DNA from: a virus
DNA: 64,000 nucleotides
IMG/VR virus record: IMGVR_UViG_3300021960_000043
Span: 1-64,000 of that record
Strand: one strand, 5' to 3'
Under the pieces are notes generated by a model, which saw nothing but the letters and a program-made list of their open reading frames with translations, made no database searches and was not told where the DNA came from. Positions 3,545 to 27,321 of the stretch are shown in pieces (position 1 is the first letter of the stretch; each line of letters opens with the position of its first letter). A program made the position numbers and the translations under genes.

Positions 3545-3754
3545 GTGAATGAAGATTTCGTTTTAGTATTCAAGGCAAAATCTTACATTCAAGATAGACC
3601 AAAAAGACTTGCTCAGGCTAAAGTTCAGCGTTTATCCCGTAAAACTAAGAATCGTAAAACTAAGAAAAGATATGCTCGTAACCTTTCTAGAGGAAATATC
3701 AGACCAAAGATGCGTAGACAAACAGGCTTAGTAAGGGTGGTGAGGCAAAGATGA
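3545..3754 (+). CDS. Highly basic small protein
   Basis: 69 aa, Arg/Lys-rich; ATGA overlap with the next gene. Confidence 0.6.
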   Translation: MNEDFVLVFKAKSYIQDRPKRLAQAKVQRLSRKTKNRKTKKRYARNLSRGNIRPKMRRQTGLVRVVRQR

Positions 3755-4530
3755 AAATACAACCTCACGAATATGGCCCTGTAACAGAATATCATGGAAC
3801 TATAGATTTACCAAAAGTTCTTTCTGAAGGGATTAGAGGTGGAAACCCGAAAACTCGCTCAAATCGCTATATACCTGAAGGTATGAGAGAAGAAGAATTG
3901 ATTTCTTATACTCACCCAAATAGAGAAATGGCTTTAGCCTACGCACAAGACAGGGCAAATAGAATGAAACTTGACCCGAAAAAAGTTGGCGTTGTTGGTG
4001 TTAGAGGTACTCAATTACCTGAAGCAGTTGAACACCAAGAGCCAAAAGAGGGCATTTTTGCAGGTACAAGTAGTTTAGTTAGACCGGGTAGTATATCTCC
4101 TGAATATCTAATTCAAGCATCTGAGGATAAGATGAAACCAAAGAAAAAGAAAGGTGTTGTTTTGATAATTTCAGTTGGCCCGAAAATGCCACGTAAACCA
4201 ACAGATGAGGCCACACCTAATAAAGAAGTCAAAAAATCATTTAGTAAACCAATGGACATAGCCTATCAACTATTGAAAAGAAATCTATCACCAGCAGCAC
4301 GAAAACATAAGTTGGAATATGACACAAAATATCAGTCTAGCCCGGAACGGGTCAAGTACAGAGTAGGTTTGAACCGTGAGCGTAGACGCAGGGGGATTTA
4401 CGGTTCAGGCAACGGGAAAGATGTCAGTCATACCGAGGGTGGGAAACTCACTTTGGAAAATGAGCATGATAATCGGGCTAGGCACTTTAAGAATCGGGGT
4501 ACACTTCGTAAGGTCAAGGTGAAAAAATGA
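3751..4530 (+). CDS. Multi-module protein: ADP-ribosyltransferase-like fold, linker, and HNH-like C-terminal module
   Basis: N-terminal YHGT..VLSEGI..SYT..A.AYA..V.V..I.PEYL pattern; internal tag PMDIAYQLLKR; C-terminal GNGKDVSH...NRAR. Confidence 0.55.
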   Translation: MKIQPHEYGPVTEYHGTIDLPKVLSEGIRGGNPKTRSNRYIPEGMREEELISYTHPNREMALAYAQDRANRMKLDPKKVGVVGVRGTQLPEAVEHQEPKEGIFAGTSSLVRPGSISPEYLIQASEDKMKPKKKKGVVLIISVGPKMPRKPTDEATPNKEVKKSFSKPMDIAYQLLKRNLSPAARKHKLEYDTKYQSSPERVKYRVGLNRERRRRGIYGSGNGKDVSHTEGGKLTLENEHDNRARHFKNRGTLRKVKVKK

Positions 4531-4700
4531 ACAGTTGTGATTGCGGTCATTGTGTTGGTATGGACACAGTTTGGAAAAAATTATGCCCTGCTGGAAAAGC
4601 AGCCGCTAAGAAAAAGTTCGATGTTTACCCATCTGCGTATGCAAACGGTTGGGCTGTACAATATTGTCGTGGTAAGTTTAAGGGGAAGAAGAAGAAATGA
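4527..4700 (+). CDS. 57-aa basic Cys-containing protein (not in ORF track)
   Basis: MNSCDCGHCVGMDTVWKKLCPAGKAAAKKKFDVYPSAYANGWAVQYCRGKFKGKKKK; ATGA overlaps at both ends; the YPSAYAN motif recurs in small basic proteins of marine viruses. Confidence 0.8.
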   Translation: MNSCDCGHCVGMDTVWKKLCPAGKAAAKKKFDVYPSAYANGWAVQYCRGKFKGKKKK

Positions 4701-4858
4701 AACTCAAAAAAGACAAATGTTGTTGTGGTGGTACTAAGAAAACACCTTGCGTTTGTATGATTGAGGGTAATCAATGTTCAACATCTTCTCCTAAATGTCC
4801 TTGTTATGCTTTGATAGACAAACAAAAGAACATTAAAAAAATGGTAGGAGTAGTATGA
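4697..4858 (+). CDS. 53-aa Cys-rich, metallothionein-like protein (not in ORF track)
   Basis: MKLKKDKCCCGGTKKTPCVCMIEGNQCSTSSPKCPCYALIDKQKNIKKMVGVV; 8 Cys; ATGA overlaps at both ends. Confidence 0.7.
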   Translation: MKLKKDKCCCGGTKKTPCVCMIEGNQCSTSSPKCPCYALIDKQKNIKKMVGVV

Positions 4859-5439
4859 CACGATGTACTTGTCATGATGTGCTCATTGTAAAGAACTTAA
4901 ACCGCTGGTTTAAGGAAAAATGGGTAGATGTGTCACGTACTAAAGATGGCAAGCACCCACCATGTGGTAGAAGCAAGGGAAAACTTTCAGGTAAAGGTTA
5001 TCCTAAATGTAGACCTTCAATCAAAGTTTCAAGTAAAACGCCTAAAACATCAGGTTCTATGTCATCGGGTGAGAAGCAAGCGGCGACAAAAAGAAAACGT
5101 GCAAAAAAGCAAGGTGTGGGTGGGAAACCAACAATTGTTAAGACAGACTACACTATGCGAAGCGACATGGATGCTTTTACCGCAGCGTGGGATATACTCA
5201 AAGCATCAACAGAAAGAAAGAAATTAAGTCTGAACAGAAGGCCAAACACCGGGCCAATTTCTTTTACTAACGAAAGACAGAAAACCCGTGAACAAAGAAT
5301 GATACAAGACATGATTAATGAAACAGGAAATAAACAACCACTCGATGTGATGAATCAAAAGGGTAGAGAACAAACCCCAAAAGAAGAAGAGTACCATTAT
5401 CAACAAATGTTACAAGATTATCAAGATGAAGGGTATTAG
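4855..5439 (+). CDS. Basic viral module (RWFKEKWVD...CGR...YPKCRP; DUF5872-like) fused to a second tagged module
   Basis: Recognisable motif in the N-terminal half; internal MDAFTAAWDILKAS at 5167. Confidence 0.75.
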   Translation: MTRCTCHDVLIVKNLNRWFKEKWVDVSRTKDGKHPPCGRSKGKLSGKGYPKCRPSIKVSSKTPKTSGSMSSGEKQAATKRKRAKKQGVGGKPTIVKTDYTMRSDMDAFTAAWDILKASTERKKLSLNRRPNTGPISFTNERQKTREQRMIQDMINETGNKQPLDVMNQKGREQTPKEEEYHYQQMLQDYQDEGY

Positions 5440-5441
5440 AA

Positions 5442-5939
5442 ATGAATGATTTTAACATATGTGATTGTTGCACACCTATGCAACAAGCATCAGCGGCTTT
5501 GTTAGATTCTGTTTTTGAAAAAGCCTCAAAATATGATTTCCCATGTCCTCATTGTGGGAGTGAAAACCCAATGGTTGCTTACACTCCTGATTATACAGGG
5601 TATCATGGAAGTTGTGCAAACTGTCATCAAGAAATTACTTCACCAGCAGGTAGCACTAGATATGTCGCTAAAGGTGAAAAGCCATTTCATGGCTACAACC
5701 CAAACAGACATAGTAGAAGTGGTGGACTAAATGCAAAAGGACGTGCAAAGTTTAAGCGAGAAACAGGTGCAAACTTGAAAAGACCTGTTACAAAGAAGCC
5801 AAGTTCACTAAAACCCGGCAGTAAAGCAGCAAAAAGAAGAAAGTCATTTTGTGCTAGAATGGGTGGAAGTAAAGGTCCAACTAGTAAAGATGGGAAATTA
5901 ACACCAAAGGGTGCTGCTCTAAAACGCTGGAATTGTTAA
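5442..5939 (+). CDS. Zn-ribbon plus basic viral module (GGLNAKGR...RRKSFCARM...WNC; DUF6321-like)
   Basis: CPHC/CANC Zn ribbon between FEKA and VAKG; conserved basic C-terminal motif. Confidence 0.75.
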   Translation: MNDFNICDCCTPMQQASAALLDSVFEKASKYDFPCPHCGSENPMVAYTPDYTGYHGSCANCHQEITSPAGSTRYVAKGEKPFHGYNPNRHSRSGGLNAKGRAKFKRETGANLKRPVTKKPSSLKPGSKAAKRRKSFCARMGGSKGPTSKDGKLTPKGAALKRWNC

Positions 5940-5995
5940 ATATGATTACCAACGCTTTTCTTTCTATTATGCCGAATTGGTTAAAGGCTTTGATA

Positions 5996-6080
5996 GCATT
6001 ATTTTAATTATTCAATATTACTTATATATATAATAATAATATATTTATATGTTATATAATAACAATGAAATAATGAAAAC
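5996..6080. other. Extremely AT-rich intergenic element
   Basis: About 85 nt of almost pure A/T; shares TACTTATAT and ATAATAA/AATGAA with positions 1-55. Confidence 0.6.
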
Positions 6081-6135
6081 ATTTTCGCACATTTCTTATA
6101 CTAACCCCTAGTGCGGTCAAACAAGAGGTCATATC

Positions 6136-6768
6136 ATGGATTGGAATGCCGATGGAGAAATAGATAACTCAGAATTAAGATTAACAGGACTGATTTTAGC
6201 ACAATCAGCACTCATTGGAGTGGCAGTAGGGGTTTTTGACTCCGGCGTTTGGTTGCCATCGGGTGAAAGCCAAGACTCATGGGTCAACGGTATGACCTAT
6301 TCTATGGCAGCCTTAGCAGTTCAAATTGTGGCATTTTACTTATTCAAAATGTTCTTTGAGCAATCAATGAGACAAAGAGTTAGTATGCAAAATCGTCAGA
6401 AAGAATATGAAATGAGGATTCGTGGTATGCAAGGCGACCATGAACAAAGAAGAATGGAACTTCAGTTAAGGGTACAAGAAATGCAACTAGAAAGAGATTT
6501 AGCCGCATTTAAGCAAAATCCGACAGGATATTTTCAACAACCCACTTCACCTCCTGAATTACAACAACATAGCACTCCTTCAGGTGCTATGAGTTTAGGG
6601 TTAGATGCTTTAGCACATCAACCTCAATCTGTAGTACCACCTAGAAACTTAGATGAAATATATCAATTAGCAGATTCACTTCAAAATATGCCAACACCAC
6701 CTGCTGATGGAAAACCAACAACGAGGTTGAAAAAGGATGGTACACCTGACCTCAGATACAAGAGTTGA
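6136..6768 (+). CDS. Two-TM membrane protein with coiled coil and C-terminal KKDGTPDLRY motif
   Basis: Two hydrophobic segments followed by a heptad-rich region; GAGGT RBS. Confidence 0.8.
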   Translation: MDWNADGEIDNSELRLTGLILAQSALIGVAVGVFDSGVWLPSGESQDSWVNGMTYSMAALAVQIVAFYLFKMFFEQSMRQRVSMQNRQKEYEMRIRGMQGDHEQRRMELQLRVQEMQLERDLAAFKQNPTGYFQQPTSPPELQQHSTPSGAMSLGLDALAHQPQSVVPPRNLDEIYQLADSLQNMPTPPADGKPTTRLKKDGTPDLRYKS

Positions 6769-6773
6769 ATTAG

Positions 6774-7031
6774 ATGGGTAAAATATTCAAAACACCAAAA
6801 GATGATTCTGTGGAAGAAACACTTAGAGCCATGCATTTAGCAAATACATTTGATAACACATACGAATGGACAGTTGGTTGGGTTAGAACAATTATTGTAG
6901 CAGGTGTAACTGCTTTAGCGGTTAGTGCTGCTGAATCTTATACAGAGTTCACATTGTGGGGTTGGACTGTTGAATGGTTTTTAGAAAAAGTCGCTAATTT
7001 CGCACAATGGCTATCTGATTTAGTGAGTTGA
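6774..7031 (+). CDS. Small membrane protein
   Basis: Hydrophobic WVRTIIVAGVTALAVSAA and a Trp-rich amphipathic C-terminus. Confidence 0.75.
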   Translation: MGKIFKTPKDDSVEETLRAMHLANTFDNTYEWTVGWVRTIIVAGVTALAVSAAESYTEFTLWGWTVEWFLEKVANFAQWLSDLVS

Positions 7032-7035
7032 ATAA

Positions 7036-7749
7036 ATGTCAATGACAGGTAGCGTATTGGTGGGGGCTGCCCTTTTTGGACAAAATCTATACAATTCTTG
7101 GCGACCTAGAAAAATAGGAGTTTATGGGACTAGCATGGTGGGTAAAACCACTCTTGATAGATATATGACAACACCGGGTGAAATGGAAGAAATACCTGAA
7201 GAAGAAAGAACCTCTCATGCTAAAATATTAGGTAAGTTTCTTTTACCAAAACCTACTAGAAAAAGAGTAAAATGGCAAGGTGAAAGAAGATTAGTTCATT
7301 CTGCTGATATGGGAGGACAACAAAGATTTTGGAATCTTTGGATGGATGATGCCGTAGCAAGACAGGTCGAAGCAATTGTTTACATGTTTGATGATAGAGC
7401 ATTCAAAGGTGGTGGTGAAGGAATGGAACAAGTTGCTGGATTTACATTCTTAGTAGATAATATAATTAAAAGACAGTATCGTTATAGAAACGTAAAGGCT
7501 TGGTGGAAAGGTAGAAAATATTCTCCTAAAGTAATTATGTTAGTCGCTAATAAAGCGGATAGATATTTCGATGATACTGCTGCTAGGTTATGGCCTCAAG
7601 GAAGAATTGGTGAACATAAAATATTTGACCCTTTTAGAGATGATTTAATTCGTTTACAAAAAGCAGGTGTACCAACTAAAAGGTCTTTCATGGCTACTAG
7701 AATAGGTTGGAATGTTGAGCCAACATTGATAGAACTTTTAACTTCGTAG
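7036..7749 (+). CDS. Small Ras-superfamily GTPase, Arf/Sar1-like
   Basis: G1 GTSMVGKTT, G3 DMGGQ followed by RFWNLW, AIVYMFD, G4 VANKAD, G5-like MATRIG; hydrophobic/amphipathic N-terminal extension. Confidence 0.85.
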   Translation: MSMTGSVLVGAALFGQNLYNSWRPRKIGVYGTSMVGKTTLDRYMTTPGEMEEIPEEERTSHAKILGKFLLPKPTRKRVKWQGERRLVHSADMGGQQRFWNLWMDDAVARQVEAIVYMFDDRAFKGGGEGMEQVAGFTFLVDNIIKRQYRYRNVKAWWKGRKYSPKVIMLVANKADRYFDDTAARLWPQGRIGEHKIFDPFRDDLIRLQKAGVPTKRSFMATRIGWNVEPTLIELLTS

Positions 7750-7757
7750 GTGGAAAA

Positions 7758-7934
7758 ATGAGTAGGAATAAAACAACATTAGTAGGCACAGGTGGTGGCT
7801 CTAAGAGTTTGAGAACTACAGTACCTTCTTGGATAGTTGAACAATTTGGTTTAAAATCAGGCAAAAAATTGTTTTGGAGACTAGAAACTAGTGAAAATGG
7901 GGAATTGTATATCAAGGTGAAGCCTGAGGGATAA
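7758..7934 (+). CDS. AbrB/MazE/SpoVT-family swapped-hairpin DNA-binding protein (58 aa, not in ORF track)
   Basis: MSRNKTTLVGTGGGSKSLRTTVPSWIVEQFGLKSGKKLFWRLETSENGELYIKVKPEG; AGGTGG RBS. Confidence 0.8.
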   Translation: MSRNKTTLVGTGGGSKSLRTTVPSWIVEQFGLKSGKKLFWRLETSENGELYIKVKPEG

Positions 7935-7936
7935 AC

Positions 7937-8938
7937 ATGGTTTTAGATGTACCCGATAATATGTATCGTGCTGTAACAGGCACAAGAATACAACCAAATC
8001 AATCTTTAGCAGCCATAAATGAAGCCGCTATGGTGGCTTTGTCACAACAAGGAAATAATAACTTAAATTATGCTGCTTTAATGGAACAGGCTGTAGCACA
8101 ACAACAGATGCAAGCGTTAGCCCAAACTAAAAATCTTGAAGTGCCAAAAGTTAATTTTTACCCTAGCACACATCCTGATGGTAGAAAAGCAAGGAAACAA
8201 GACATAAAACAAGCCTATCGTTTACTTACGCCAGCAAAAAGATTTATGTTAAGCCCTGCTAGATTGTTTGGTAGAAAATATATTTACAATAAACAAACAA
8301 ATCTTTGTGTTGTTGATGGTTGTGATTGTGCTGAGTTAATAAAAAGTGATAATTTATATCAAAGAATTACTGATGATGAAACAGGTAGAAGTCTTTGGGA
8401 GATGTATTGGAACAATCCAATTACAGGGGAAGTTGAGGCTTTTTTAGCACAAGATAGAGTTACTAGTGGTAGAAGAATGAAAGGAACATACTGTCCTGAA
8501 CATTTACATCTTTATCATTTGTTATGTAAATGGGAATCAGAACAAGAAAGAGAAGATGAATTAAAACCATCTAGGTTTAGAGATAAAATGAAAAAAGGTG
8601 TTAGTTTAGTAACAGTTCCTGTTACAGCCTTAACAAACACATCACAACCCACTCATAGTTTAGTTGAAAAATATCAAGTCTTTTTTGAAGAAATACAAAA
8701 AGATTCTAACAAATCAAAAGGCATAAATATTTGGCATATACCAAATCCTGAAAGTGGAAACAATGATATTACTATGATACAGTTTGATATGAGAATGTTT
8801 CAAAAAGAAATACTTGAAGCCTCATTACCCACACCCGCTTTTTCTAACATGTTAAATCAAGCCAATATACCTAATATAAACCAACAGCCTCAAACCATGA
8901 CACCTGTTCCCCTTAATCAAGAGGTGGCACAACAATGA
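7937..8938 (+). CDS. Hypothetical protein with putative Zn-binding site
   Basis: CVVDGCDC ... CPEHLH; Gln-rich termini. Confidence 0.75.
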   Translation: MVLDVPDNMYRAVTGTRIQPNQSLAAINEAAMVALSQQGNNNLNYAALMEQAVAQQQMQALAQTKNLEVPKVNFYPSTHPDGRKARKQDIKQAYRLLTPAKRFMLSPARLFGRKYIYNKQTNLCVVDGCDCAELIKSDNLYQRITDDETGRSLWEMYWNNPITGEVEAFLAQDRVTSGRRMKGTYCPEHLHLYHLLCKWESEQEREDELKPSRFRDKMKKGVSLVTVPVTALTNTSQPTHSLVEKYQVFFEEIQKDSNKSKGINIWHIPNPESGNNDITMIQFDMRMFQKEILEASLPTPAFSNMLNQANIPNINQQPQTMTPVPLNQEVAQQ

Positions 8939-9552
8939 CATTAGGAATAGGTACAAACCAAACTCAAAATAACGGCTTTACAGGTTTGGGATTAGGTGCT
9001 GCAACACCATCAACTAATCCTTTTGGTGCTCAACAAAGTCAACAAATGAATCCCCTTATGGGCGGAATGTTGCAAGGTGCTGGTTTTAATCCCGCCCACG
9101 CTCAAGCACCTATAGCCCCTCCCTCAGATACACAGATACTTGCAGCGATGATGAATACAATACAACCTATTGATAGATTTTTCATTGGACAAAGTATGCC
9201 TATATTTGTAGAAATGATTTCTAATATTACAGCGTTTTCTTTGTTGAATGTGTTAAAAAACTCATCTTTCAAAATAGACGATGATGGGAATATGAAAATG
9301 GATGTATCTTCTTTACCTAGTGATTTACAAACTCTTTCTGCTGAAAACATAATAGCACAATTGAACACTTTACAAAATATTTCACAACAAGCGGTTACAT
9401 CTGCTTTACAAGAAAGAGATAGAATAATTGCTATCTCTGAACAAAGTCTATTACAATCTGCACTCACAGGTGCTTTAACAGACCAAACTTTCCTAGAAAA
9501 TGCGGGCAACGCTATGGGTACAACAGCCCGAAGTTTCTTTGGACTAAGGTGA
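8935..9552 (+). CDS. Hypothetical helical protein with Gly/Gln-rich N-terminus
   Basis: 205 aa; GAGGTGG RBS; ATGA overlap. Confidence 0.75.
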   Translation: MTLGIGTNQTQNNGFTGLGLGAATPSTNPFGAQQSQQMNPLMGGMLQGAGFNPAHAQAPIAPPSDTQILAAMMNTIQPIDRFFIGQSMPIFVEMISNITAFSLLNVLKNSSFKIDDDGNMKMDVSSLPSDLQTLSAENIIAQLNTLQNISQQAVTSALQERDRIIAISEQSLLQSALTGALTDQTFLENAGNAMGTTARSFFGLR

Positions 9553-9806
9553 TTAAAATGAAAATAACCCCGACAGAGTATATACCAAAAGAGTTTGCAG
9601 AAGTTTCTATGCACTTTTTCTCTCCAAAGAGAAGTGTGATTATAGATATGGTAATGGTACAATTAATTAGTGCTATGATTGTTGGATTACTAATTCTTTT
9701 ATTCAAAGGTGGGGAATTAAATGCATCTGAAACATCCATGTACATGATTGGGATTTTTGTATCTTTTATTCTTTTGACTACGGTTTATGCTAGAATAACT
9801 AGATAG
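9549..9806 (+). CDS. Small two-TM membrane protein (holin-like topology)
   Basis: Two hydrophobic helices in 85 aa; last gene of the operon. Confidence 0.7.
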   Translation: MIKMKITPTEYIPKEFAEVSMHFFSPKRSVIIDMVMVQLISAMIVGLLILLFKGGELNASETSMYMIGIFVSFILLTTVYARITR

Positions 9807-9838
9807 TATTATCAAATGTACGCCTCATCGACTATTAC

Positions 9839-10516
9839 ATGGGGGATGCCGTAACCAAACGCTCATGTTCTTTTTGTATGTCCTCTGAAAGAGAGGTATA
9901 CGAAGAAGCCTTGTTAAATGGAGACATGAATCCTAAACAAATAGATAAAGAAATGGGTTGGAGAACTAACACTTCTGAAAGACATTATAGAAACCATATG
10001 GGAGAGTTTCACCTAGCATCGAATCACACGTGTAAAATATGTACAGACCCAAAAAGAGCAGAATATGAATCTCGATATTTTGCTGATGGTACAGAATCTG
10101 AAGCCATAGCGGAAGAATTAGAAATACCGGAAAATAGTGTGTACCATCATATGAAGTTTCATTTTCAACCGTTGGTTCAAAAATCAGCAGCAACTGAGGT
10201 CGCAATTCAAGTCGGAACAGAAATGACAACTCTAAGAGAAAATGTCGAAAGATTAAATCAAAGACTTAACACTTATCTTGATGAAACTAGTGTACATGAA
10301 GATGGGTTTGTCAAAGATGCTGTAAGTTTACACAAAGAAGTTAGAGAATCTATTAAAGACTTAATGAAAATGCAAGACCAATGGGGTACTAAAAATGAAA
10401 CCCCACAAATTAATCAAACAATCAACGTGTTAAAAGTGGAACTATCTAAAGAATCACCTGAAACATGGAAGAGAATTAGAGAGTCTTTGTTGGAAAGTGG
10501 AGAGGATGCCACTTGA
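9839..10516 (+). CDS. Putative terminase small subunit or DNA-binding protein with duplicated CxxC-HTH-HxxxH units
   Basis: CSFC...HYRNH and CKIC...HMKFH repeats enclosing HTH-like helices, then a coiled coil; first gene of the operon leading to TerL. Confidence 0.55.
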   Translation: MGDAVTKRSCSFCMSSEREVYEEALLNGDMNPKQIDKEMGWRTNTSERHYRNHMGEFHLASNHTCKICTDPKRAEYESRYFADGTESEAIAEELEIPENSVYHHMKFHFQPLVQKSAATEVAIQVGTEMTTLRENVERLNQRLNTYLDETSVHEDGFVKDAVSLHKEVRESIKDLMKMQDQWGTKNETPQINQTINVLKVELSKESPETWKRIRESLLESGEDAT

Positions 10517-10920
10517 TTTCTATAGGAGATTTAATGCAAATAACACACCCCGGTCATAGACATTATAATTCTGATAATTCATTACACGATAGTGATTTAC
10601 CTTTATTTTTAGATTATTGTGTTAATGTTATAGAGAAGTTCAATTATCATCATTTTAATTCTTATAACAATAAATTAGAAAATGTAGATTGTATAATAAG
10701 AATAGTAGATTTAACTACACGATTACAACAAAGTGATGAACCAAAAGAAGTTTTTGATATTCGTGCTGAATTGAGAAAAGAATTATCTAATTTTGAATAT
10801 CTTTGTGATACGATGGCTAGGTGTTTTGTAAGTCCTAATTTTGTCATAGAGTTCTATCATAGGCTTTCTAATAAACTCAACAATGAAATAAAAGTATATG
10901 CGGGGTTAGACTATGACTGA
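10513..10920 (+). CDS. Hypothetical protein
   Basis: 135 aa, TTG start with GAGG RBS, overlapping both neighbours. Confidence 0.65.
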   Translation: MISIGDLMQITHPGHRHYNSDNSLHDSDLPLFLDYCVNVIEKFNYHHFNSYNNKLENVDCIIRIVDLTTRLQQSDEPKEVFDIRAELRKELSNFEYLCDTMARCFVSPNFVIEFYHRLSNKLNNEIKVYAGLDYD

Positions 10921-12925
10921 CCGTAGGGTGTACATTTCCAAGTCGGGAATGACAGGTACGGGTACAGACACAAGAATGTATTCACCACGTTCAGAATCTT
11001 CCCATATGTACCGAAATAACCACGAAGAGGACACTTATGGTATGGAGGATGGAAAAGTTCGTGATGATAAATATGAAAGAAAACTCCAAGAAAAAGAAAA
11101 AACAAAAGAGAAGAGAAATAAAATAAAACATATTCGTATAAAACCTAGTGATTTACCTGAAGAAGAAGATGAAGAAAGAGATGATTCAGAAAAAATAGAT
11201 GTAGATAGAGAACTTTCTGCACAAACAGGCCCACCGGGTAATTTAGGTTTTGAGACTAGTCTTGCTATGGGTGCAAAAGGGCCGGGTGCAGCCGCTGGTA
11301 ATTTATTTGCTATGGGAGAAAGCATGGATATTATTCAATTACTTAAAATGGGTAAATATGGTAGAAGAGGTGTTGGTAGTGATAGAAGTTTTGTGCCTAC
11401 AACTAGACAGAAGGATGTTGCTGTAACAAAAAGAAAAACACCTAAAGAGTTGCTAATGCAAGCACTTACAGGCACACTTGGTTTAGAACCTAGTTTGACT
11501 CAAGCACAAAAAAGAGATTTAGTGGCTGTTAGACGAGCGTTAGATAAACACGGAAACAGTCTTAATATTCCTAAAACAACCATGATTAGAGATTTAAGTA
11601 ATTATATGCCTATTTCTCAAACTACAAAAGATAAACGTGGTGAAAAAGGAGATAGAAGATATACTTCTGTTGTACCCGGTCAAAAAGGTATGAATATCAG
11701 TACAGGTCAACCTACATTTAGAAATCTTACATCTAGACAAAGAGATATTACAGGTTTAGAAGGTATGGATTTAGTGCAAGCATTAGACCATGAAAATTAT
11801 ATGGATGCTTTATCTAATATGTCAAGATACACACAAGCACAAAACTTACCTGAAAGTGAACCTGAAAGTGAACCTGAAAGTGAACCTAAGAAAAAAACAG
11901 GCATTTTACCAAAAATGAGTTCTGAGTATGAAAGAAGGATGAATGAATACTTTAATGCTAATTCAGGCTCAGATAGCAACATATCTACAGGTGAACCTAT
12001 GGGAGATGCTTGGTCTACTTTAATGAAAGCAACAGAAAAAGAAATGGAAAAAAGAAGAGCCAAAGAACAAAACAAGAAATGGCGACCATCAACAGGTCAG
12101 TTTGACACACCACCGGGTGGTAGTCTAGGGCCAAAAGGTTCTACAGGAAGAAGAGATAAGGCTTTACGTTCATCTATTAAACAAGGTAAAAAAACAGGTT
12201 TAGAGTTAGCACATGTGGCTGTGGAGAGAAGCCATAGAGGTAGAAAAGTCAAACAACCGCTTTCAAAAGACCCGCAAAAGTATAGGGAATATCAAGGTAC
12301 AATGGAAGCGAGGAAAAGAGTAGGTAATGTTAGAGTACCAACCGCATCACAAAGAAGATTCGGACAACGTAAATATTTCGCAGGGCCAACGGGCGGTGGT
12401 AGATTACCTGCGGGAGTTGGGGTGAAAAGACCAAGAATCCATTCACCGAGAATGTCATCAGCCCCCTCAGTACCTCATCTGAATAGAAGAAGCACTCCAT
12501 CTGCTGGTTTATCGGTTGGAAAAATGGGGCTTAGAAGAATGGGCGCACCACCTGTTGCTGTGTCAGCACCACCTGTACCACCACCACCACCACCACCACA
12601 ACCACCTATTCAAGACCCATCACAAATACAAATGAGTTCTGATTTAGTGGCGGTTAGTAATCTGTTAAAAGCAGGGCCAACTCATGCAGACATAGTTGAA
12701 TTGAGAAGTTTAGTAAGACAAATGAAAAGGGCTTTGAAAACTAAAGACACGACATCGAAGGGTATGGGTACAAAAGATACTAGTGGGGCAGGTGAAGATA
12801 AACCGAAATATAATTCTGCTAGTTTTAGAACTACATCAAGACCTGAGGGGGCAACTGAAGATGCTACAAATGATTCTCAGGCTTTTGGTGTTCATCCTGA
12901 AAATCGTGGAGGCCCAACTCCATGA
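10913..12925 (+). CDS. Low-complexity modular protein with three internal helix-LK tags (putative internal head protein)
   Basis: MGESMDIIQLLKMG, STGEPMGDAWSTLMKA and MSSDLVAVSNLLKAG separate acidic, basic and Pro-rich blocks; (ESEP)3 repeat at about 11849-11886. Confidence 0.7.
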   Translation: MTDRRVYISKSGMTGTGTDTRMYSPRSESSHMYRNNHEEDTYGMEDGKVRDDKYERKLQEKEKTKEKRNKIKHIRIKPSDLPEEEDEERDDSEKIDVDRELSAQTGPPGNLGFETSLAMGAKGPGAAAGNLFAMGESMDIIQLLKMGKYGRRGVGSDRSFVPTTRQKDVAVTKRKTPKELLMQALTGTLGLEPSLTQAQKRDLVAVRRALDKHGNSLNIPKTTMIRDLSNYMPISQTTKDKRGEKGDRRYTSVVPGQKGMNISTGQPTFRNLTSRQRDITGLEGMDLVQALDHENYMDALSNMSRYTQAQNLPESEPESEPESEPKKKTGILPKMSSEYERRMNEYFNANSGSDSNISTGEPMGDAWSTLMKATEKEMEKRRAKEQNKKWRPSTGQFDTPPGGSLGPKGSTGRRDKALRSSIKQGKKTGLELAHVAVERSHRGRKVKQPLSKDPQKYREYQGTMEARKRVGNVRVPTASQRRFGQRKYFAGPTGGGRLPAGVGVKRPRIHSPRMSSAPSVPHLNRRSTPSAGLSVGKMGLRRMGAPPVAVSAPPVPPPPPPPQPPIQDPSQIQMSSDLVAVSNLLKAGPTHADIVELRSLVRQMKRALKTKDTTSKGMGTKDTSGAGEDKPKYNSASFRTTSRPEGATEDATNDSQAFGVHPENRGGPTP

Positions 12926-17536: not shown

Positions 17537-18697
17537 ATGAGAGAGATTGAGATGACAGAACTTTTTTCTACAACAGGGGAGGGTTGGTTTGAAACACATG
17601 TGGGGTGTTCTGCTTCTGATATTGTAAAAAGATTAAGAAAAAATAGAAGAGTCAACAAAAGCCAAAAAAATGACATTGATGATTTAATTGGAGACATTCG
17701 CACAATCAAATCTTTAGAGTTTGATTCAACCATTACAATGCATTCATGGTTAGAAGATTACAAAAATGTAATAAAATCTTTTTCACCTTCAGAAAAAGAC
17801 ATGAAAGCATTAAGAAAGTTTGGTGATTCTAGAAAGGTTACTTTACAAAGAGCATGTATTCAATGGAATCAATCTAATGAAATACTCAAAATGCTTGATG
17901 AGTTTGAAGGAGTGTGGGGTCAAGATGAAAAAGACTCTTGGGTAAAAGCCATGCAACAAAAGAAAGATGCAAAGAAAGTTTGGAAAACCACTTTACATCA
18001 AATGGATAGGTTGAACGAAAAAGATGCAGAGGTCTTGAAAAAAAGCGCATCTATGTTGGAACAAAAAGGTGCTATGACATCTAAAGCAATTTTTCAAACT
18101 TTACATGAAAATAAAGATATTACCAAAAGTATGACTGTGGGAAAATTAGGAAAACTACTAGCCATGTATGGTGAAGAATTAGATATTTTAACAGGTAACA
18201 CACGCTCTACATTTGTAAAAGCAGACAATCATGGTTTGATTCTCAAAGACCCTTTTGCTTACGCTGCTGGATTTTTAGATGCTGATGGTTATATTAGTAT
18301 CACAGGAAGGGGAGAACCAAGAGCAGGTTTCATAGCAACGGGTACTAGAGGGAGAATACATTGTGAACATTTACAAAAAACTTTAGATTGTGGTCGTTTA
18401 CAATTAGACCAAAAAGTGTACAAAGACAGTCAAAGGAGTCAACACCGCTTGCAATTCTATTCTAAAGCAGATATACGAAAGTTACTAACTTCCTTATTAC
18501 CTCATTTGCAAATGAAAAAAACACAAGCCAAAGCGGTGTTAGCCTACATAGAAGAAGATGATAAAATGAGAAAAGAGGAACTTAAAAAACTAGTTAAATA
18601 TAATAATTGGTCTGACGATACATCCAAGTCTGATGCCTTACTCGCTGAGTGGGGAGTACAAGCAGATACTGTTGCTAAATGGGGAGAGGGATTATAA
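17537..18697 (+). CDS. Protein with C-terminal LAGLIDADG homing-endonuclease-like domain
   Basis: YAAGFLDADGYISI motif, then LLPHLQMKKTQA; long helical N-terminal part. Confidence 0.8.
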   Translation: MREIEMTELFSTTGEGWFETHVGCSASDIVKRLRKNRRVNKSQKNDIDDLIGDIRTIKSLEFDSTITMHSWLEDYKNVIKSFSPSEKDMKALRKFGDSRKVTLQRACIQWNQSNEILKMLDEFEGVWGQDEKDSWVKAMQQKKDAKKVWKTTLHQMDRLNEKDAEVLKKSASMLEQKGAMTSKAIFQTLHENKDITKSMTVGKLGKLLAMYGEELDILTGNTRSTFVKADNHGLILKDPFAYAAGFLDADGYISITGRGEPRAGFIATGTRGRIHCEHLQKTLDCGRLQLDQKVYKDSQRSQHRLQFYSKADIRKLLTSLLPHLQMKKTQAKAVLAYIEEDDKMRKEELKKLVKYNNWSDDTSKSDALLAEWGVQADTVAKWGEGL

Positions 18698-21755: not shown

Positions 21756-21910
21756 ATGTGAAAGTTGGTATTGTGAAAGGGGTTTCAACCACCGAACATT
21801 GTCAACTATGCGGAGGTAATACATCCACAGGATGTTTAGCACCTGAAAATCAGGGTGGGAGTTTGCTGTCCTGTTCTATTAGGCAGAACCCCGCAATTGG
21901 AGGGAGGTGA
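21752..21910 (+). CDS. 52-aa Zn-finger-like protein (not in ORF track)
   Basis: MNVKVGIVKGVSTTEHCQLCGGNTSTGCLAPENQGGSLLSCSIRQNPAIGGR; overlaps both neighbours by 4 nt. Confidence 0.6.
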   Translation: MNVKVGIVKGVSTTEHCQLCGGNTSTGCLAPENQGGSLLSCSIRQNPAIGGR

Positions 21911-24900
21911 ATGATTTGGATTCAGACCAAAATATTCATCTTCAAGCAAGAGACAATTTGTTAAAATCTTTCATCTTTGCACAAGAAGATATAGACCATG
22001 AATTGAATGACTATGTTTTATCAGTCATTAATTTGTTCAATAAAGGCATATATGAAGAAAATTACATTGATAGATTTTTCATTGATAAAAGTCTTTTAAT
22101 TTTGAAAGACGAAGATGTTAAAAGACAGATTTTAGATTTAGATAGATTCAAAGAATTAGAAGAAAGTCTACCATTAGATGGAAGAGAACAAGAAAGAAGA
22201 AAGAAACGAGAATCTTTCAAACCTACCTATGAGTATATGTTAAGTGGTAGAAAAACCGGACATAGAGATAGACTTGATTTTGAAAATGAAAAAACGGTAC
22301 AAAGACCAGCAAAAATGTACCCTGCTAAACATAGATGGGCTGGAAAACATGTAGTGTCAGATGATATGATTTCTAGATGGCCTAAAAGTGTAACAGACTC
22401 ATCTAGTTATAGAGACAATCCTTTTTCCAACATTTTACATCCTTTATTAAAAATTAATTCTAAACACGGTTATCCTGAGTTTGTTGAGAAATTAAAAAAT
22501 TATTATTTGTCTAGTGAAGATGACACACCGCTTTCACAACTTCACGGTGAAATAGAAATGAGGCATAACAACTATCACAAAAAAAATGGAGATATGGTGT
22601 TAGACAACAAATATTTAGGTGATTTAAGTGAACATAGTGAAGGACACGGTGCTCTTGAACACACATTATATGAAAGGGCTTATCAAAAATGGATAGAAGA
22701 TAACCGAGTTTCTGTTGATGAAATGATTAAAAATGGCTCTACAGATAAAGATGTTAGAAATAAACATTTTGAAGAGGCTGCTAATAAATGGACTAGTGAC
22801 GACTATCAAGAAGTCGAAGGGAGTAATTTACAAGATAATAGATTATACGCTGATATTCAAAAATTAATTAATAGTGGCGGTTTCAAAGAAAGTGAAAATG
22901 CTAGAGATTATCTTTTAGAATATAAAAATAAAGGTAAATACGGTGAGGGAGAAATTGAACATTATGATAAACAAAAATACCCACTAGGTGTTTTAGAAAA
23001 CCACTCTCATAAATTAGGATGGTTAGGGTATAATTTAGGTTTAGAATGGTTAGAACCTAAAGACAGAAGTAAAGTTATTGAACATTTATTAGAACACCGA
23101 AGTGATGGAAAAGAATCTCACCAATCACATGTTACGTTAAGTGATGGTGTTAAGTTGCCTATGGCTAGATTAAAAAGAAATGCAGCAAAAAGGGCTATGC
23201 CTGAAATGTTGTGGGCTATAGGTAGTCATGATAGAGCATTACCTAACACTAAAGCACATAGAGAAAACAAAGAAGAAATTGGTGACTTTGATACTGATAA
23301 AAGAGTTCATTTCTTTAACACAGGTATGAAAGAAACAATGGTAAAGACAGGTAAAGGGGATGAACAAATATCTCTTAATGAATCTTTACTTAAAAATATA
23401 AATGATAAATTACATAAAAACATGTACGACCAAGAAGATTTTCTTGAAAATCCCGCAGCCGAGCAGGGGATTAAAGATGCTAACTCATTAAGATTTTTAC
23501 CTATAACAGATTATGAAATGCAAGGTGTTAAAGAAAATTATCAAAAAGGGTTGCGTAATGCATTCAAAAATCAAATGTTCACAGATAAAATGGGTCAAAG
23601 ATTACCACTTGCTGAAATGAAAAGGGTAGATGCAAAGATACTTCATGCTGCTCTAAAAACCTTCAATCGAAATGTAAAAAACAGGAGACAAACTTTCCAT
23701 GCTACAAGTAGTATAGAAGATTTGAAAAAACATTATGCTGTAGAAGAAGGTAAACACCCAATTCATGAGTTATTAGGTAATTCACTAGATGGCTCATTGA
23801 TAGATGCAGAACACATTGAAAGTTTAGAAAAAAGATTAGAGCAAGGTTTTAGTGTAGGAGATACACAAAAAAATGTATCAAATCACTTACAACCTTTTAC
23901 TAGAATAAAAGGTCCAACTGAAGAATCAGTAGATAGTGATACTGCAACTCATTTTCATAAAACTAAACACGGTTTAGAAGGATTACAAAACTTTTGGGCG
24001 CATGGTTTTCAAAGAGGTGGATTATCAACTTCTCCTGAAACTTACATGGATTTTTTACATGAAATGACAATAAATCCTGAAGAGCCTAATCAATCACTTT
24101 TTGGAGTGAAAAATGAAAAAAGCGGCATAATAGATTTACATAGTAATATTGCTGGTTTATTCGGTTTAATAAATAGTGAAACTTTACCACCTTATCAAAA
24201 GTTTGCTCACACACCAAAACAAGTCCTATCTATACATGACAGTTCTCAACCTAAAATGAAAAAAAGAATAAGAATGGATATGCCTAGAAATCTAAAAAAT
24301 CATAATATTTCTGAACATAGTAGAACACCGGGTGTATCTCATAAGATTAAAAACTCTGAGATTGGAAAGTTATCACATTTGGGTATTGGCATGGCTGACA
24401 ACGGATTACATAGCAACATAAACCCAACTGCTAGGGTAGGTAGTACACTAGGTTATACTTTTGATACTACTATATCTTCCAATTCATCGGGTATTCTTAG
24501 AGATTCTATATTAAGAGGTATAGGTCATAATCCGGGTGATAAAGACATAGCAACAGGAAGAACAAAATTAGGCTCACCTGTTTCTATGTATGGTCTAGAA
24601 GATTTATTCACAGAAGGAAAAGTTCCTTTACCTAATATTGGTGATAAATCAGACTTTTTGCAATTCATGACTGATAAAAACACATTTGCACGTTCTGAAA
24701 GTGAGCAAATGAAAACACTTAATTTAGACATGGAACAAATAATTGAAGAATTAAATTATTCTGTATTACAAGAAGAAAATAATATGGGTGGTCTTTCAGA
24801 AGTAGAAAAAGAACATCTTACTGATAGATACCAAGAACTTGAAAATCAAAAACTAGAAATCATTAGACAAATGAATAATATTGATGATAGTGATACAGCC

Positions 24901-27321
24901 TTAGGTGTAGAAAATGGAATCATGTTAAGAAATCTAAGAGAGAAAAAATCAGACTTAAACGCTATACATGACATAGCAAGAGAACACATCATACCGGGTA
25001 TGAAAAAAGCAAACCCCGATGCTTTTCCTTTGGATAACCCATCTCAATTTTTAATTGATTCAGCACAAGCGTTACACGATGCTGAGTTATTTGCTTTACA
25101 CTCGGATGGTTCAATACATGGGAAAAATAGTTTAGGTTTGACCCATAATGAAATAGAGACTGATAGTATACAAACTAAATTGGGCCAATCACCACATCGT
25201 GATATGGCTCAAAGTGTTAGAGATAACGGCATAAATCTAGATTTAGAAAGAGAAGATAAAGATGAATATATTAATGAACTTTTTGAAGAACTAAGTATAC
25301 CTCCTTCAAATTACAATAAAAAAATAATAGAAGGAGTGTTACAATCAGGTAAAACACATCTTACTACTATGGGTAATTTATTAGCACAAGAAGAGCATGT
25401 TCCTAACCACGTTAAAGACCACAAAAGTATGATTGAACATTATGAAGAACAACTTAACCAATCTACATACGGTGAGGGTAGAAAAAACCTAGCATTAGAT
25501 AAAAGCCATCTTTTGAATCGTATGCCAGCAAGAAAACATTTGTTGTTAAGTCAAGCAACAAAAGATGAATTAGAACATTGGGGTTTGGATTATCACCAAT
25601 TACCAAGAAATATTTACGGTAATGAATCAAAAGGAACTAGTGTGAAAGATTCAGGTATACCTAGTAAAACTAAAAGATTCATGGATAGTTTAGTTAGTTA
25701 TGATGAGGGTGCATCTCCTGATATAGAAAATACCGAAGATGTAGGTAGAGTAACAAGAGATGAAGTAACTCATGGCTCAGATAAAATTAATTCTGTGCGT
25801 TCTAATGATGGTATAAACCCCTATCTATATTATTCTAGTAGTGCTCAAAAATTACACAATGGAAAAGTAATGTTTCCTCCAAGCACTAGTATGAATATAG
25901 ATAGAGATGGAAATGCACAATGGGGAAATAACACACAGCAGAGTTATATGATACCCGCTTCGGAAGAAGGTTTAGTTGCCATGCATGGAGAAAACACCAT
26001 ATCACAAATACAAGGTTTAGCAAATCAGCAGGGTTTAGACACTATGTATGTTAGTCCTACTAGTAATTTAGATAGAATTAGTCCTGAAAATCCTATAGGT
26101 GAAGCAGTCAACTATGAGACTATAGCCACTAGTTTTGATAAGATAACCAATAGTAGTCTATTGAAAAACTTACCAAAAGAAATGCCATTACTTGACCCTT
26201 ATCACAAAGTTTTCGATTATGAGAATGTGGAAGAGTTGAAAGGATTTACAGGAGATTGGGTTGTTGCTGCTATGGAAGTAGGTCAAAGAGTCAAAGTTAC
26301 TCGTAAGGGTACATTCATAGAAGTCAAGTCTAACGATGGGGATAAAATAGGTTTATCTGATTCTATGCGCACATCTATTAGAAAATTAGGAAGTAAAAAC
26401 TTCATTATGGATGGGGTTCTTAATGATAAAGGAATTACTATGATGGATTTGATGTATTATGATGACACCGATGTAACAGACATGGATGTAAGAGAAAGGA
26501 TGAAATTATTAAGAAGTCAATTTGATAGCCATGAAAATATTTTCATCCCTAGTCCTTCTACTCTAAGAATGACAGACGAAGATGGTTTAGAAGAAGCAAT
26601 AAAATATTTGAGAAGTGAAAATAAAGATTGTAAAATACTTATTAGAGATGCTAAATCAACTTATATGAAAGGGGAAGAAAAACATCCTAAGTGGATTTTA
26701 CTTACTAAATCTGATGATGACTTTCACATACCCTTTACTATGGAGTTAGAAGAAAATGTATTTATTATCAATTATGAACATGATATAGTTAAGTTTGATA
26801 TTGTTGATGAAGAACCTATCAACCCACGGGCCATATTAGGAGAGTTAAACAATAGCGACTATACATTAACTTTAACTAAAAGTTTAGAAAAGTATTGGCG
26901 ACCTGCATTTTACGAAATGGTGAAAGAAGAAAAAGATGAAGATGATACTGAAGATGATGAAGATGATGAAGTTATTTCAGACCGTAGAGCAGAAGTTATG
27001 GAACAAGAAAGTGCTGGAATATTAAAACCTAAGAAAGACCCTAATCTCTTACTCAAACCAAACATGATGAAAAATATTATAGAAATTATTGAAAGAAGCA
27101 TGGATGCTTTAGAAAAAGGGCATTTCCCAATGTCGGGTGGAAAAGGCTTAGGTATTGATGTTGGTAGTGATATAGAAAGTCCTAGAGGGCCGACTAAACT
27201 TACCAATGAGGCTTCTTTACCTGATTGGGATATGAAAGAAAGACCACAACAAGACCCTGAGAAACCTGAAAAGTACCCTAATAGGGAAAAGAAAGCATTG
27301 GAAACAAAAAGAACAGATTGA
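21907..27321 (+). CDS. 1804-aa head-module protein with C-terminal ATP-dependent DNA ligase-like domain (degenerate)
   Basis: At about 26170-26710: WVVAAMEVGQRV, FIMDGVL, MMDLMYYD, RERMKLL, ILIRDAKSTYMKG..HPKWILL follow ligase motifs I, III, IIIa, IV and V. Confidence 0.75.
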   Translation: MNDLDSDQNIHLQARDNLLKSFIFAQEDIDHELNDYVLSVINLFNKGIYEENYIDRFFIDKSLLILKDEDVKRQILDLDRFKELEESLPLDGREQERRKKRESFKPTYEYMLSGRKTGHRDRLDFENEKTVQRPAKMYPAKHRWAGKHVVSDDMISRWPKSVTDSSSYRDNPFSNILHPLLKINSKHGYPEFVEKLKNYYLSSEDDTPLSQLHGEIEMRHNNYHKKNGDMVLDNKYLGDLSEHSEGHGALEHTLYERAYQKWIEDNRVSVDEMIKNGSTDKDVRNKHFEEAANKWTSDDYQEVEGSNLQDNRLYADIQKLINSGGFKESENARDYLLEYKNKGKYGEGEIEHYDKQKYPLGVLENHSHKLGWLGYNLGLEWLEPKDRSKVIEHLLEHRSDGKESHQSHVTLSDGVKLPMARLKRNAAKRAMPEMLWAIGSHDRALPNTKAHRENKEEIGDFDTDKRVHFFNTGMKETMVKTGKGDEQISLNESLLKNINDKLHKNMYDQEDFLENPAAEQGIKDANSLRFLPITDYEMQGVKENYQKGLRNAFKNQMFTDKMGQRLPLAEMKRVDAKILHAALKTFNRNVKNRRQTFHATSSIEDLKKHYAVEEGKHPIHELLGNSLDGSLIDAEHIESLEKRLEQGFSVGDTQKNVSNHLQPFTRIKGPTEESVDSDTATHFHKTKHGLEGLQNFWAHGFQRGGLSTSPETYMDFLHEMTINPEEPNQSLFGVKNEKSGIIDLHSNIAGLFGLINSETLPPYQKFAHTPKQVLSIHDSSQPKMKKRIRMDMPRNLKNHNISEHSRTPGVSHKIKNSEIGKLSHLGIGMADNGLHSNINPTARVGSTLGYTFDTTISSNSSGILRDSILRGIGHNPGDKDIATGRTKLGSPVSMYGLEDLFTEGKVPLPNIGDKSDFLQFMTDKNTFARSESEQMKTLNLDMEQIIEELNYSVLQEENNMGGLSEVEKEHLTDRYQELENQKLEIIRQMNNIDDSDTALGVENGIMLRNLREKKSDLNAIHDIAREHIIPGMKKANPDAFPLDNPSQFLIDSAQALHDAELFALHSDGSIHGKNSLGLTHNEIETDSIQTKLGQSPHRDMAQSVRDNGINLDLEREDKDEYINELFEELSIPPSNYNKKIIEGVLQSGKTHLTTMGNLLAQEEHVPNHVKDHKSMIEHYEEQLNQSTYGEGRKNLALDKSHLLNRMPARKHLLLSQATKDELEHWGLDYHQLPRNIYGNESKGTSVKDSGIPSKTKRFMDSLVSYDEGASPDIENTEDVGRVTRDEVTHGSDKINSVRSNDGINPYLYYSSSAQKLHNGKVMFPPSTSMNIDRDGNAQWGNNTQQSYMIPASEEGLVAMHGENTISQIQGLANQQGLDTMYVSPTSNLDRISPENPIGEAVNYETIATSFDKITNSSLLKNLPKEMPLLDPYHKVFDYENVEELKGFTGDWVVAAMEVGQRVKVTRKGTFIEVKSNDGDKIGLSDSMRTSIRKLGSKNFIMDGVLNDKGITMMDLMYYDDTDVTDMDVRERMKLLRSQFDSHENIFIPSPSTLRMTDEDGLEEAIKYLRSENKDCKILIRDAKSTYMKGEEKHPKWILLTKSDDDFHIPFTMELEENVFIINYEHDIVKFDIVDEEPINPRAILGELNNSDYTLTLTKSLEKYWRPAFYEMVKEEKDEDDTEDDEDDEVISDRRAEVMEQESAGILKPKKDPNLLLKPNMMKNIIEIIERSMDALEKGHFPMSGGKGLGIDVGSDIESPRGPTKLTNEASLPDWDMKERPQQDPEKPEKYPNREKKALETKRTD

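Follow-up and report, generated by a model that had tools for sequence, protein, structure and literature searches.

A conserved seven-gene cassette of a Poseidoniales magrovirus joins an Arf/Sar1-like small GTPase to membrane and orphan proteins

We describe a cassette of seven genes (g1 to g7, positions 6136–9806, all on the plus strand) in the IMG/VR virus record IMGVR_UViG_3300021960_000043, of which the first 64 kb, hereafter the window, were analyzed; the whole record has 95,231 bp and an estimated CheckV completeness of 89%. The third gene encodes a small GTPase, g3, that among solved structures lies nearest to the Arf/Sar1/SRbeta branch, by a modest margin measured on a predicted model, and that begins with a putative membrane-binding helix. 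It is accompanied by three small membrane proteins (g1, g2, and g7) and two orphan proteins (g5 and g6), and the core of this arrangement is retained in viruses whose GTPases are only distantly related. Our best explanation is that the cassette would act as a virus-owned switch, controlled by GTP and working with its co-inherited partners at the host cytoplasmic membrane, with virion release as its late output. The membrane switch we consider somewhat probable, release as the output is a tentative and rather doubtful proposal, and the full explanation comes slightly short of an even chance.

The virus is a magrovirus (order Magrovirales), that is, a tailed virus of Poseidoniales. The plus strand carries nearly all the large open reading frames (ORFs) of the window, among them those for the large terminase (TerL), the portal, the prohead protease, and the major capsid protein (MCP) of HK97 type, and in the remainder of the record the opposite strand encodes a thermosome-type chaperonin (Cpn60_TCP1), a family B DNA polymerase (PolB), an RFC-like clamp loader, and a PD-(D/E)XK nuclease. 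Magroviruses, tailed viruses that have not been cultured and are ascribed to archaea of Marine Group II (Poseidoniales), have been described as having genomes of about 90–100 kb in which a morphogenesis and a replication arm diverge, together with a head module of HK97 type, a PolB replisome of their own, and a chaperonin (PMC5434244; PMC10768690), and the record agrees with this description. The magrovirus layout can be recognized by the two arms and the replisome, by the thermosome subunit, and by a LAGLIDADG-like gene within the structural arm, so the host frame is Poseidoniales and not the haloarchaea, to which an earlier annotation made from the DNA alone (the sequence-only reading) had turned for comparison. 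The last of these genes (ORF 17537–18697, between the terminase and portal genes) gave a weak LAGLIDADG match, which fits a homing endonuclease reported for magrovirus groups A, B, and D as part of their structural module (Philosof et al.).

The g3 protein (7036–7749, 237 amino acids) is a genuine GTPase, as the sequence-only reading had claimed, and the motifs then quoted are all in place: G1 (GTSMVGKTT, residues 31–39), G3 with switch II (DMGGQQRFWNLW, residues 91–102, with DMGGQ intact), and G4 (NKAD, residues 172–175). To these we can add a probable G2 (Thr74) and a G5 region at about residues 219–221. The predicted structure has the six strands and five helices of a Ras-superfamily G domain plus two family-specific inserts, one of ~17 residues in switch I (about 44–70), which contains a near-invariant His61, and another of ~22 residues after helix 3 (about 146–162). 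The invariant residues of the family include D91, G94, R109, D119, and R121, and what is conserved across lineages comprises DxGG, the switch II Trp eleven positions after the Asp (D+11), R109, the D119-x-R121 motif, and NKxD. The D-x-R motif after strand 4 is also a feature of Arf, Sar, and SRbeta. In some lineages (homologues in L087–L103) D-x-A-G-D replaces DxGG.

The second feature that carries our proposal is the N-terminal helix (residues 2–22, from model and sequence). In all 21 sequences compared, which represent every lineage, an extension of 24–29 residues precedes strand 1, so the hydrophobic/amphipathic helix that had been noticed in a single sequence turns out to be predicted throughout the family. 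Its first half is hydrophobic and uncharged, while the second is aromatic and basic and can form an amphipathic face (best hydrophobic moment, muH, over 11 residues of 0.36–0.85). A hydropathy scan found no transmembrane (TM) segment in the GTPase. An amphipathic helix located directly before the G domain is an Arf hallmark, and it is present in g3 as a prediction from sequence.

Searches with curated families placed g3 poorly. In Pfam the window's copy matched only Roc, below threshold (20.2 bits vs. a cut-off of 27), and in NCBIfam only the generic small_GTP domain, also below its cut-off. A HMMER search over 1.84 billion cluster representatives retrieved 78 clusters at E ≤ 0.001, full-length relatives at 33–57% identity together with fragments, and no cellular GTPase family near g3 appeared among them at that threshold. 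Closer relatives are found in marine metagenomes (493 clusters, with 120 listed at 70–99% identity). A tblastn search against 50,697 GenBank records of phages and archaeal viruses gave no match, although records near the window were perhaps not included in that set. Only three contigs come from metagenome-assembled genomes (L084–L086, binned with Maricaulis, a Promethearchaeati/Asgard bin, and Parvibaculum); they are 8–16 kb long and carry the viral cassette with GTPases 73–77% identical to g3, and since they are probably mis-binned viral contigs they give no information on the host.

More sensitive comparisons pointed in one direction. When the profile of the g3 family was compared with PDB sequences, the first match was GerdArfR1 (8OUN, E = 1.5e-5), followed by Arl8A/B (about 2e-4) and then by Rab33B and KRas. 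The GerdArfR1 match spans the N-terminal helix as well as the P-loop, and 8OUN is an Asgard Arf-family protein in which the N-terminal helix gives GTP-dependent membrane binding (bioRxiv 10.1101/2024.02.28.582541). An AlphaFold model built from 51 sequences reached a mean per-residue confidence (pLDDT) of 86 and a predicted template modelling score (pTM) of 0.85; a first model from 20 close sequences (pLDDT 69.6), whose Foldseek matches had a root mean square deviation of ~11 Å, had been discarded. Foldseek alone did not tell the small GTPases apart. A search independent of Foldseek over 48,161 representatives ranked Arf6 first (Z = 17.5), followed by Sar1 (17.1), SRbeta (16.2), an Asgard Rag-like protein (16.1), G-alpha (15.3), and Rab (≤14.9). 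Taking the sequence profile and the two structural searches together, the Arf/Sar1/SRbeta branch is the closest to the modeled g3 among solved structures.

Another explanation is that the cassette forms a membrane-bound platform for assembly or insertion. Here g3 would act like SRbeta, or like a membrane-anchored initiator such as T4 gp40, and would not open the membrane but help viral membrane proteins to insert, or keep head assembly or DNA packaging attached to it. The location of the cassette just upstream of the packaging and head genes would suit such a platform, and so would the uniformly hydrophobic, anchor-like first half of the g3 helix. However, SRbeta scores under both Arf6 and Sar1, none of the neighbours was recognized as an SRX, longin, or roadblock-like partner, and we know of no tailed virus that needs an SRbeta-like or membrane assembly factor. 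We regard the platform as improbable.

Returning to the Arf-like membrane switch, the references compared were the eukaryotic Arf1/Arf6, Arl1/3/6/8, and Sar1 and the Asgard ArfR/AArf proteins (GerdArfR1, 8OUN/8OUM; HodArfR1, 8OUK; bioRxiv 10.1101/2024.02.28.582541; PMC11914678). Apart from having GerdArfR1 as its best profile match in the PDB and a helix directly before strand 1, g3 shares with this family a DxGGQ leading into RF..xxW, whose Trp stands at D+11 just as it does in Arf and Arl8, the NKxD, and a G5 region of the A-T...G...E type. The differences lie in the two inserts, in the missing myristoylation site (Gly2), and in the partners, which are orphan proteins and not known GTPase-activating proteins, exchange factors, or coats. 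The setting differs too, since g3 belongs to tailed viruses of Poseidoniales, while ArfR has been described as nearly confined to Asgard archaea. Arf-type GTPases have also been reported in a region of an Asgard genome that resembles a mobile genetic element (PMC11529989). A virus-encoded small GTPase is known in Acanthamoeba polyphaga mimivirus (PDB 5XC5), but there the protein is a Rab and the virus infects a eukaryote, whereas g3 is without close relatives in cells and is encoded by a tailed archaeal virus within an operon of membrane proteins.

The membrane proteins of the cassette were called correctly in the sequence-only reading, and a hydropathy scan gave two TM segments in g1, one in g2, and two in g7. 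The first (g1, 6136–6768, 210 amino acids) has two conserved TM helices (about residues 14–38 and 56–75) followed by an Arg-rich coiled coil, which the positive-inside rule puts in the cytoplasm, a variable Pro/Gln linker, and a C-terminal KKDGTPDLRYK motif. This C-terminus (6727–6765) is the conserved peptide LKKDGTPDLRYK in most relatives and is missing in a sub-group (e.g., L014, L017, L036, and L056); a function as a short docking motif is possible. A link between this motif and the DUF6321 domain of the gene upstream of the cassette was also considered and dropped, being only a loose regular-expression match. The second protein (g2, 6774–7031, 85 amino acids) has a single TM helix (34–52, with a GWVRT motif) and a Trp-rich amphipathic C-terminus, and the last (g7, 9549–9806, 85 amino acids) is a hairpin of two TM helices (about 28–55 and 62–84). 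Profile searches found no relatives of g1 in Pfam, PHROGs, or PDB sequences, and no known holin family was recovered for any of the three (the best PHROG holin match was that of g1, at E = 0.076, with none for g2 or g7).

Transmembrane segments are also frequent in the ejection proteins of tailed phages, and the cassette could encode ejection or internal proteins that are carried in the virion and form a channel through the host envelope at entry. Against this, a switch GTPase would have no obvious role inside a capsid, and we find it very unlikely. A parallel to the proposed membrane switch is offered by the holin-type lysis cassettes of tailed bacteriophages, which group small proteins with one or two TM segments and, in lambda-like phages, place them ahead of the terminase and head genes. 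The small TM proteins g1, g2, and g7 also precede the terminase, and the output that we propose is likewise an action on the cytoplasmic membrane at a set time, but the magrovirus cassette lacks a holin-family match, an endolysin, and a spanin, and to our knowledge no phage lysis cassette contains a small GTPase. No lytic enzyme was recognized among the large ORFs of the window. The sequence-only reading had already remarked on the missing endolysin; while the remark stands for the window, it says nothing about egress, because no S-layer-degrading enzyme has been identified in any archaeal virus and none would be recognizable. A 2024 review considers the egress players of tailed archaeal viruses completely uncharacterised (PMC10791045).

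One argument that these genes work together comes from their co-inheritance. In 80 viral contigs with a GTPase 69–99% identical to that of the window (close loci), g5, g6, g7, and the gene that follows were present in all 80, g2 in 79, g1 in 78, and g4 in 73, always in identical order. In a more distant lineage (13 contigs, GTPase at 37–42% identity) the order is a protein with two TM segments, one with a single TM segment and the same GWVRT motif, the GTPase, g5, g6, sometimes another protein with two TM segments, and a helix-turn-helix (HTH) gene, with no AbrB gene; here the MCP is 63–64% identical (two records checked) and TerL 45% (one record). Four further contigs with a GC content of 45–52% have a GTPase at 32% identity and still retain a TM protein, a g2-like protein, the GTPase, g5, and a g6-like protein in this order, with g5 as well conserved as the GTPase (36%, E = 1e-36). 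In that lineage the search for the MCP was empty in the two records checked, and one of these, a 110-kb contig with PolB and a chaperonin, had no TerL match either. The distant lineages thus keep a shorter analogue of two TM segments at the place of g1 and a recognizable g2 analogue directly before the GTPase, and some of the loci also keep an analogue of g7 with two TM segments.

Among 25 records with the MCP of the window's type, 17 contain the GTPase, including all three that are at least 90% complete, and each of the eight that lack it stops <22 kb upstream of the MCP, short of the cassette in contig coordinates; in other words, the GTPase is found in all 17 records that reach far enough upstream. 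Several side observations concern these relatives. In the most distant lineage with GTPase and g5, a thermosome-type chaperonin gene is located ~1.2 kb upstream of the cassette (L100:4250-5785 and L103, G001:57844-59283), unlike the chaperonin of the window's virus, which sits in the opposite arm. The TerL homologue of the virus of L088 (G003:C1:60022-61449) has two in-frame stops, one TGA and one TAA, that could reflect the insertion of an element, a gene split in two, or a faulty assembly.

Gene order can also be conserved for reasons unrelated to a shared function, and g3 might be a cytosolic regulator of translation, folding, or assembly acting away from membranes, its neighbours being due to a conservation of gene order along the whole arm. 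In the close relatives collinearity indeed covers the block 3751–12925 and beyond, not only the seven genes, and the g3 model is less confident at residues 1–20 (pLDDT 57–73). On the other hand, the order of two TM proteins, GTPase, g5, and g6 survives where most flanking genes, the MCP, and TerL are no longer recognizable, and the hydrophobic character of the N-terminal helix is conserved in all lineages. We therefore give a cytosolic role only a slim chance. The sequence-only reading would have been refuted by neighbours that are not co-conserved; here they are, from the close loci down to a GTPase identity of 32%, which speaks for that reading.

Of the two orphan proteins, g5 (7937–8938, 333 amino acids) is the only neighbour found beside the GTPase in every lineage. 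It has two invariant Cys (C124 and C186), three nearly invariant His (H189, H191, and H194), and a basic block VPKVNFYP...KAR. The conserved Cys and His residues fit a metal site, as the label of Zn-binding protein given to g5 in the sequence-only reading would have it, but the label is drawn from these residues, with no family match behind it. No relatives were found in Pfam, PHROGs, or the PDB, and in the ESM Atlas there was only a cluster of viral hypothetical proteins, at 0.76. A predicted complex of the GTPase with g5, GTP, and Mg scored 0.01 against a mark of 0.32, a value that is evidence neither way. The other orphan, g6 (8935–9552, 205 amino acids), has a low-complexity N-terminus rich in Gly, Gln, Asn, and Met, a conserved core (LP..LQTLS.EN), and a Gln-rich, heptad-like C-terminal half; it had no relatives in Pfam, PHROGs, or the PDB, where the profile search returned only chance-level matches.

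An operon that combines a small GTPase carrying an N-terminal amphipathic helix with an adjoining Cys-containing (Zn-type) protein recalls ArvA-ArvB-ArvC (OapABC) of Haloferax volcanii and other archaea, in which the GTPase ArvA drives vesicle formation and its operon partners are ArvB (DUF2073) and ArvC (a DUF2072 Zn-ribbon protein) (PMC10927574). The parallel underlies a further explanation, in which the virus would take over the host envelope by superinfection exclusion, by masking of receptors, or by an induced, ArvA-like shedding of vesicles as decoys. A link between such a GTPase and membrane deformation has been demonstrated in Euryarchaeota by ArvABC. Neither DUF2073 nor DUF2072 was matched in Pfam at E ≤ 1 by 27 homologues of g5, 24 homologues of g6, or the window's nine proteins, and ArvA is described as having EngA as a structural homolog (PMC10927574), whereas g3 ranks with Arf and Sar; it is by this description that the two are set apart here. 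The magrovirus unit also differs in its three TM proteins and in belonging to a virus. Exclusion systems typically include small membrane proteins, which would favor a takeover of the envelope, but an exclusion gene would not normally be expected within the morphogenesis arm. Such a takeover appears to us about as improbable as a cytosolic role.

The mechanism that we favor is the GTP-controlled membrane switch. In its GTP form g3 would expose the N-terminal hydrophobic/amphipathic helix and bind the membrane, where it would meet g1, g2, and g7 as receptors, exchange factors, or effectors, with g5 and g6 as candidate regulators, effectors, or scaffold. The output would be a late action on the membrane, for example a timed weakening or rupture that lets the virions out; a late membrane action is the most likely output because the cassette is located in the morphogenesis arm, upstream of the terminase.

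Several observations weigh against this interpretation. The sequence similarity to Arf is marginal: g3 stays below every curated threshold, Pfam assigned 33 of the 51 family members to Roc and only five to Arf (PF00025, best E = 0.0048), all below cut-off and the Arf matches short of the gathering score, and phmmer against the PDB gave E-values >0.5. The advantage of Arf over Rab is only 2–3 Z units on a predicted model. The Trp that typically precedes DxGG in Arf is missing, and the position of the catalytic Gln (residue after DxGG; window 7306–7320, residues 91–95) is occupied by Q, E, D, H, or A depending on the lineage, which suggests, as far as residues can tell, that GTP hydrolysis is partner-dependent or dispensable in some lineages; some members may thus hydrolyse poorly or need a partner. 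Residues 1–15 are not clearly amphipathic (muH 0.02–0.2), and the helix could be an anchor instead of a switchable element. Since collinearity in close relatives extends over all of the morphogenesis arm, some of the synteny is due to conservation of the genome in general, and the late timing is only assumed from position. In view of the failed sequence membership we call g3 Arf/Sar1-like in architecture and do not count it as a member of the Arf family. The Arf/Sar1 identity proposed in the sequence-only reading is in this way kept in part: Arf members are the nearest solved structures and profile matches and the helix is there, but Pfam membership is not, and the catalytic Gln is not conserved across lineages.

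In its boldest form, the proposal is that magroviruses possess a core GTPase of the Arf/Sar1 branch that, with membrane and orphan partners, forms a GTP-timed machine bending or rupturing the host membrane; this would be the first egress system of tailed archaeal viruses and an Arf-like switch independent of eukaryotes and Asgard archaea. We consider this form unlikely as a whole, though worth stating. The literature searched, which included the main magrovirus papers in full and the supplements of one, does not mention a GTPase in magroviruses, so within it this cassette has not been previously described. A conserved cassette owned by the virus provides concrete genes for the question of how tailed archaeal viruses leave their hosts. 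Magroviruses belong to the most abundant viruses of the surface ocean and are reported to rank third in abundance among marine viruses (PMC5434244), and for this reason the way in which they kill the abundant Marine Group II archaea bears on the flow of carbon in the ocean. If true, viruses of Thermoplasmatota-type archaea would possess an Arf/Sar-like switch with a membrane helix, and the known range of this mechanism would reach beyond eukaryotes and Asgard archaea, whether by ancient transfer or by convergence.

As for the limits of the cassette, the seven ORFs exist exactly as first delineated, with intergenic gaps of −4 to +8 nucleotides, and so does the AT-rich spacer before g1 (5940–6135, plus strand), a probable promoter region of 196 nucleotides with 25% GC compared to 36% in the operon. 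A GAGG-type ribosome-binding motif lies 8–13 nucleotides ahead of the g1 start. On the other side, only 32 nucleotides separate g7 from the next gene (9839–10516), a gap that in half of 20 relatives amounts to 180–437 nucleotides, and this gene is alone here in lacking the Shine-Dalgarno-like GAGG-type motif that precedes most cassette genes. Both features fit, without proving it, a new transcription unit after g7; the promoter with which the sequence-only reading had closed the unit is a putative one. Its discreteness holds for the tight packing of the seven genes, but the conserved block runs past 9806, and the genes at 9839–12925 are equally collinear. A scan for sigma-70 promoters and terminators gave counts near the shuffled expectation, that model not being meaningful for an archaeal virus. 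Short metatranscriptome contigs (four libraries from three studies, 88–99% alike) fall on each of g1–g7 and on the next gene; they are unstranded and may derive from DNA carry-over, and so they do not show transcription of the cassette.

The remaining gene of the cassette, g4 (7758–7934), encodes a protein of 58 amino acids of the AbrB/MazE (SpoVT) swapped-hairpin type. Its AbrB-type nature, which had been read directly from the sequence, is supported through its relatives, as 17 of 18 homologues match PF04014 (best E = 1e-5), while the window copy itself stays below the cut-off (18.1 vs. 24.7 bits); a profile search of the PDB returned only chance-level rows. It is absent in the distant lineages, where g5 directly follows the GTPase. 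From the orders kept across lineages, the conserved core is g1-g2-GTPase-g5-g6(-g7), and g4 is a later, lineage-specific insert between the GTPase and g5.

The gene that follows the cassette (9839–10516) codes for 225 amino acids with invariant C10, C13, C65, and C68, a LuxR/GerE-type HTH (weakly matching NarL and GerE), and a coiled coil at the C-terminus. It accompanies the cassette down to a GTPase identity of ~40%, and two of 21 homologues of its product weakly match a small-terminase PHROG family; the product could act as a late regulator or else as a small terminase. Directly before the spacer, the gene at 5442–5939 has a C-terminal DUF6321 domain (E = 5e-17), a domain that in PHROGs forms the C-terminal end of numerous phage proteins that are unrelated to one another and differ widely in length. 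Further along the window there is an ORF of 1,804 amino acids (21907–27321), and a single ORF of 5,447 amino acids (40755–57098) fills a quarter of it.

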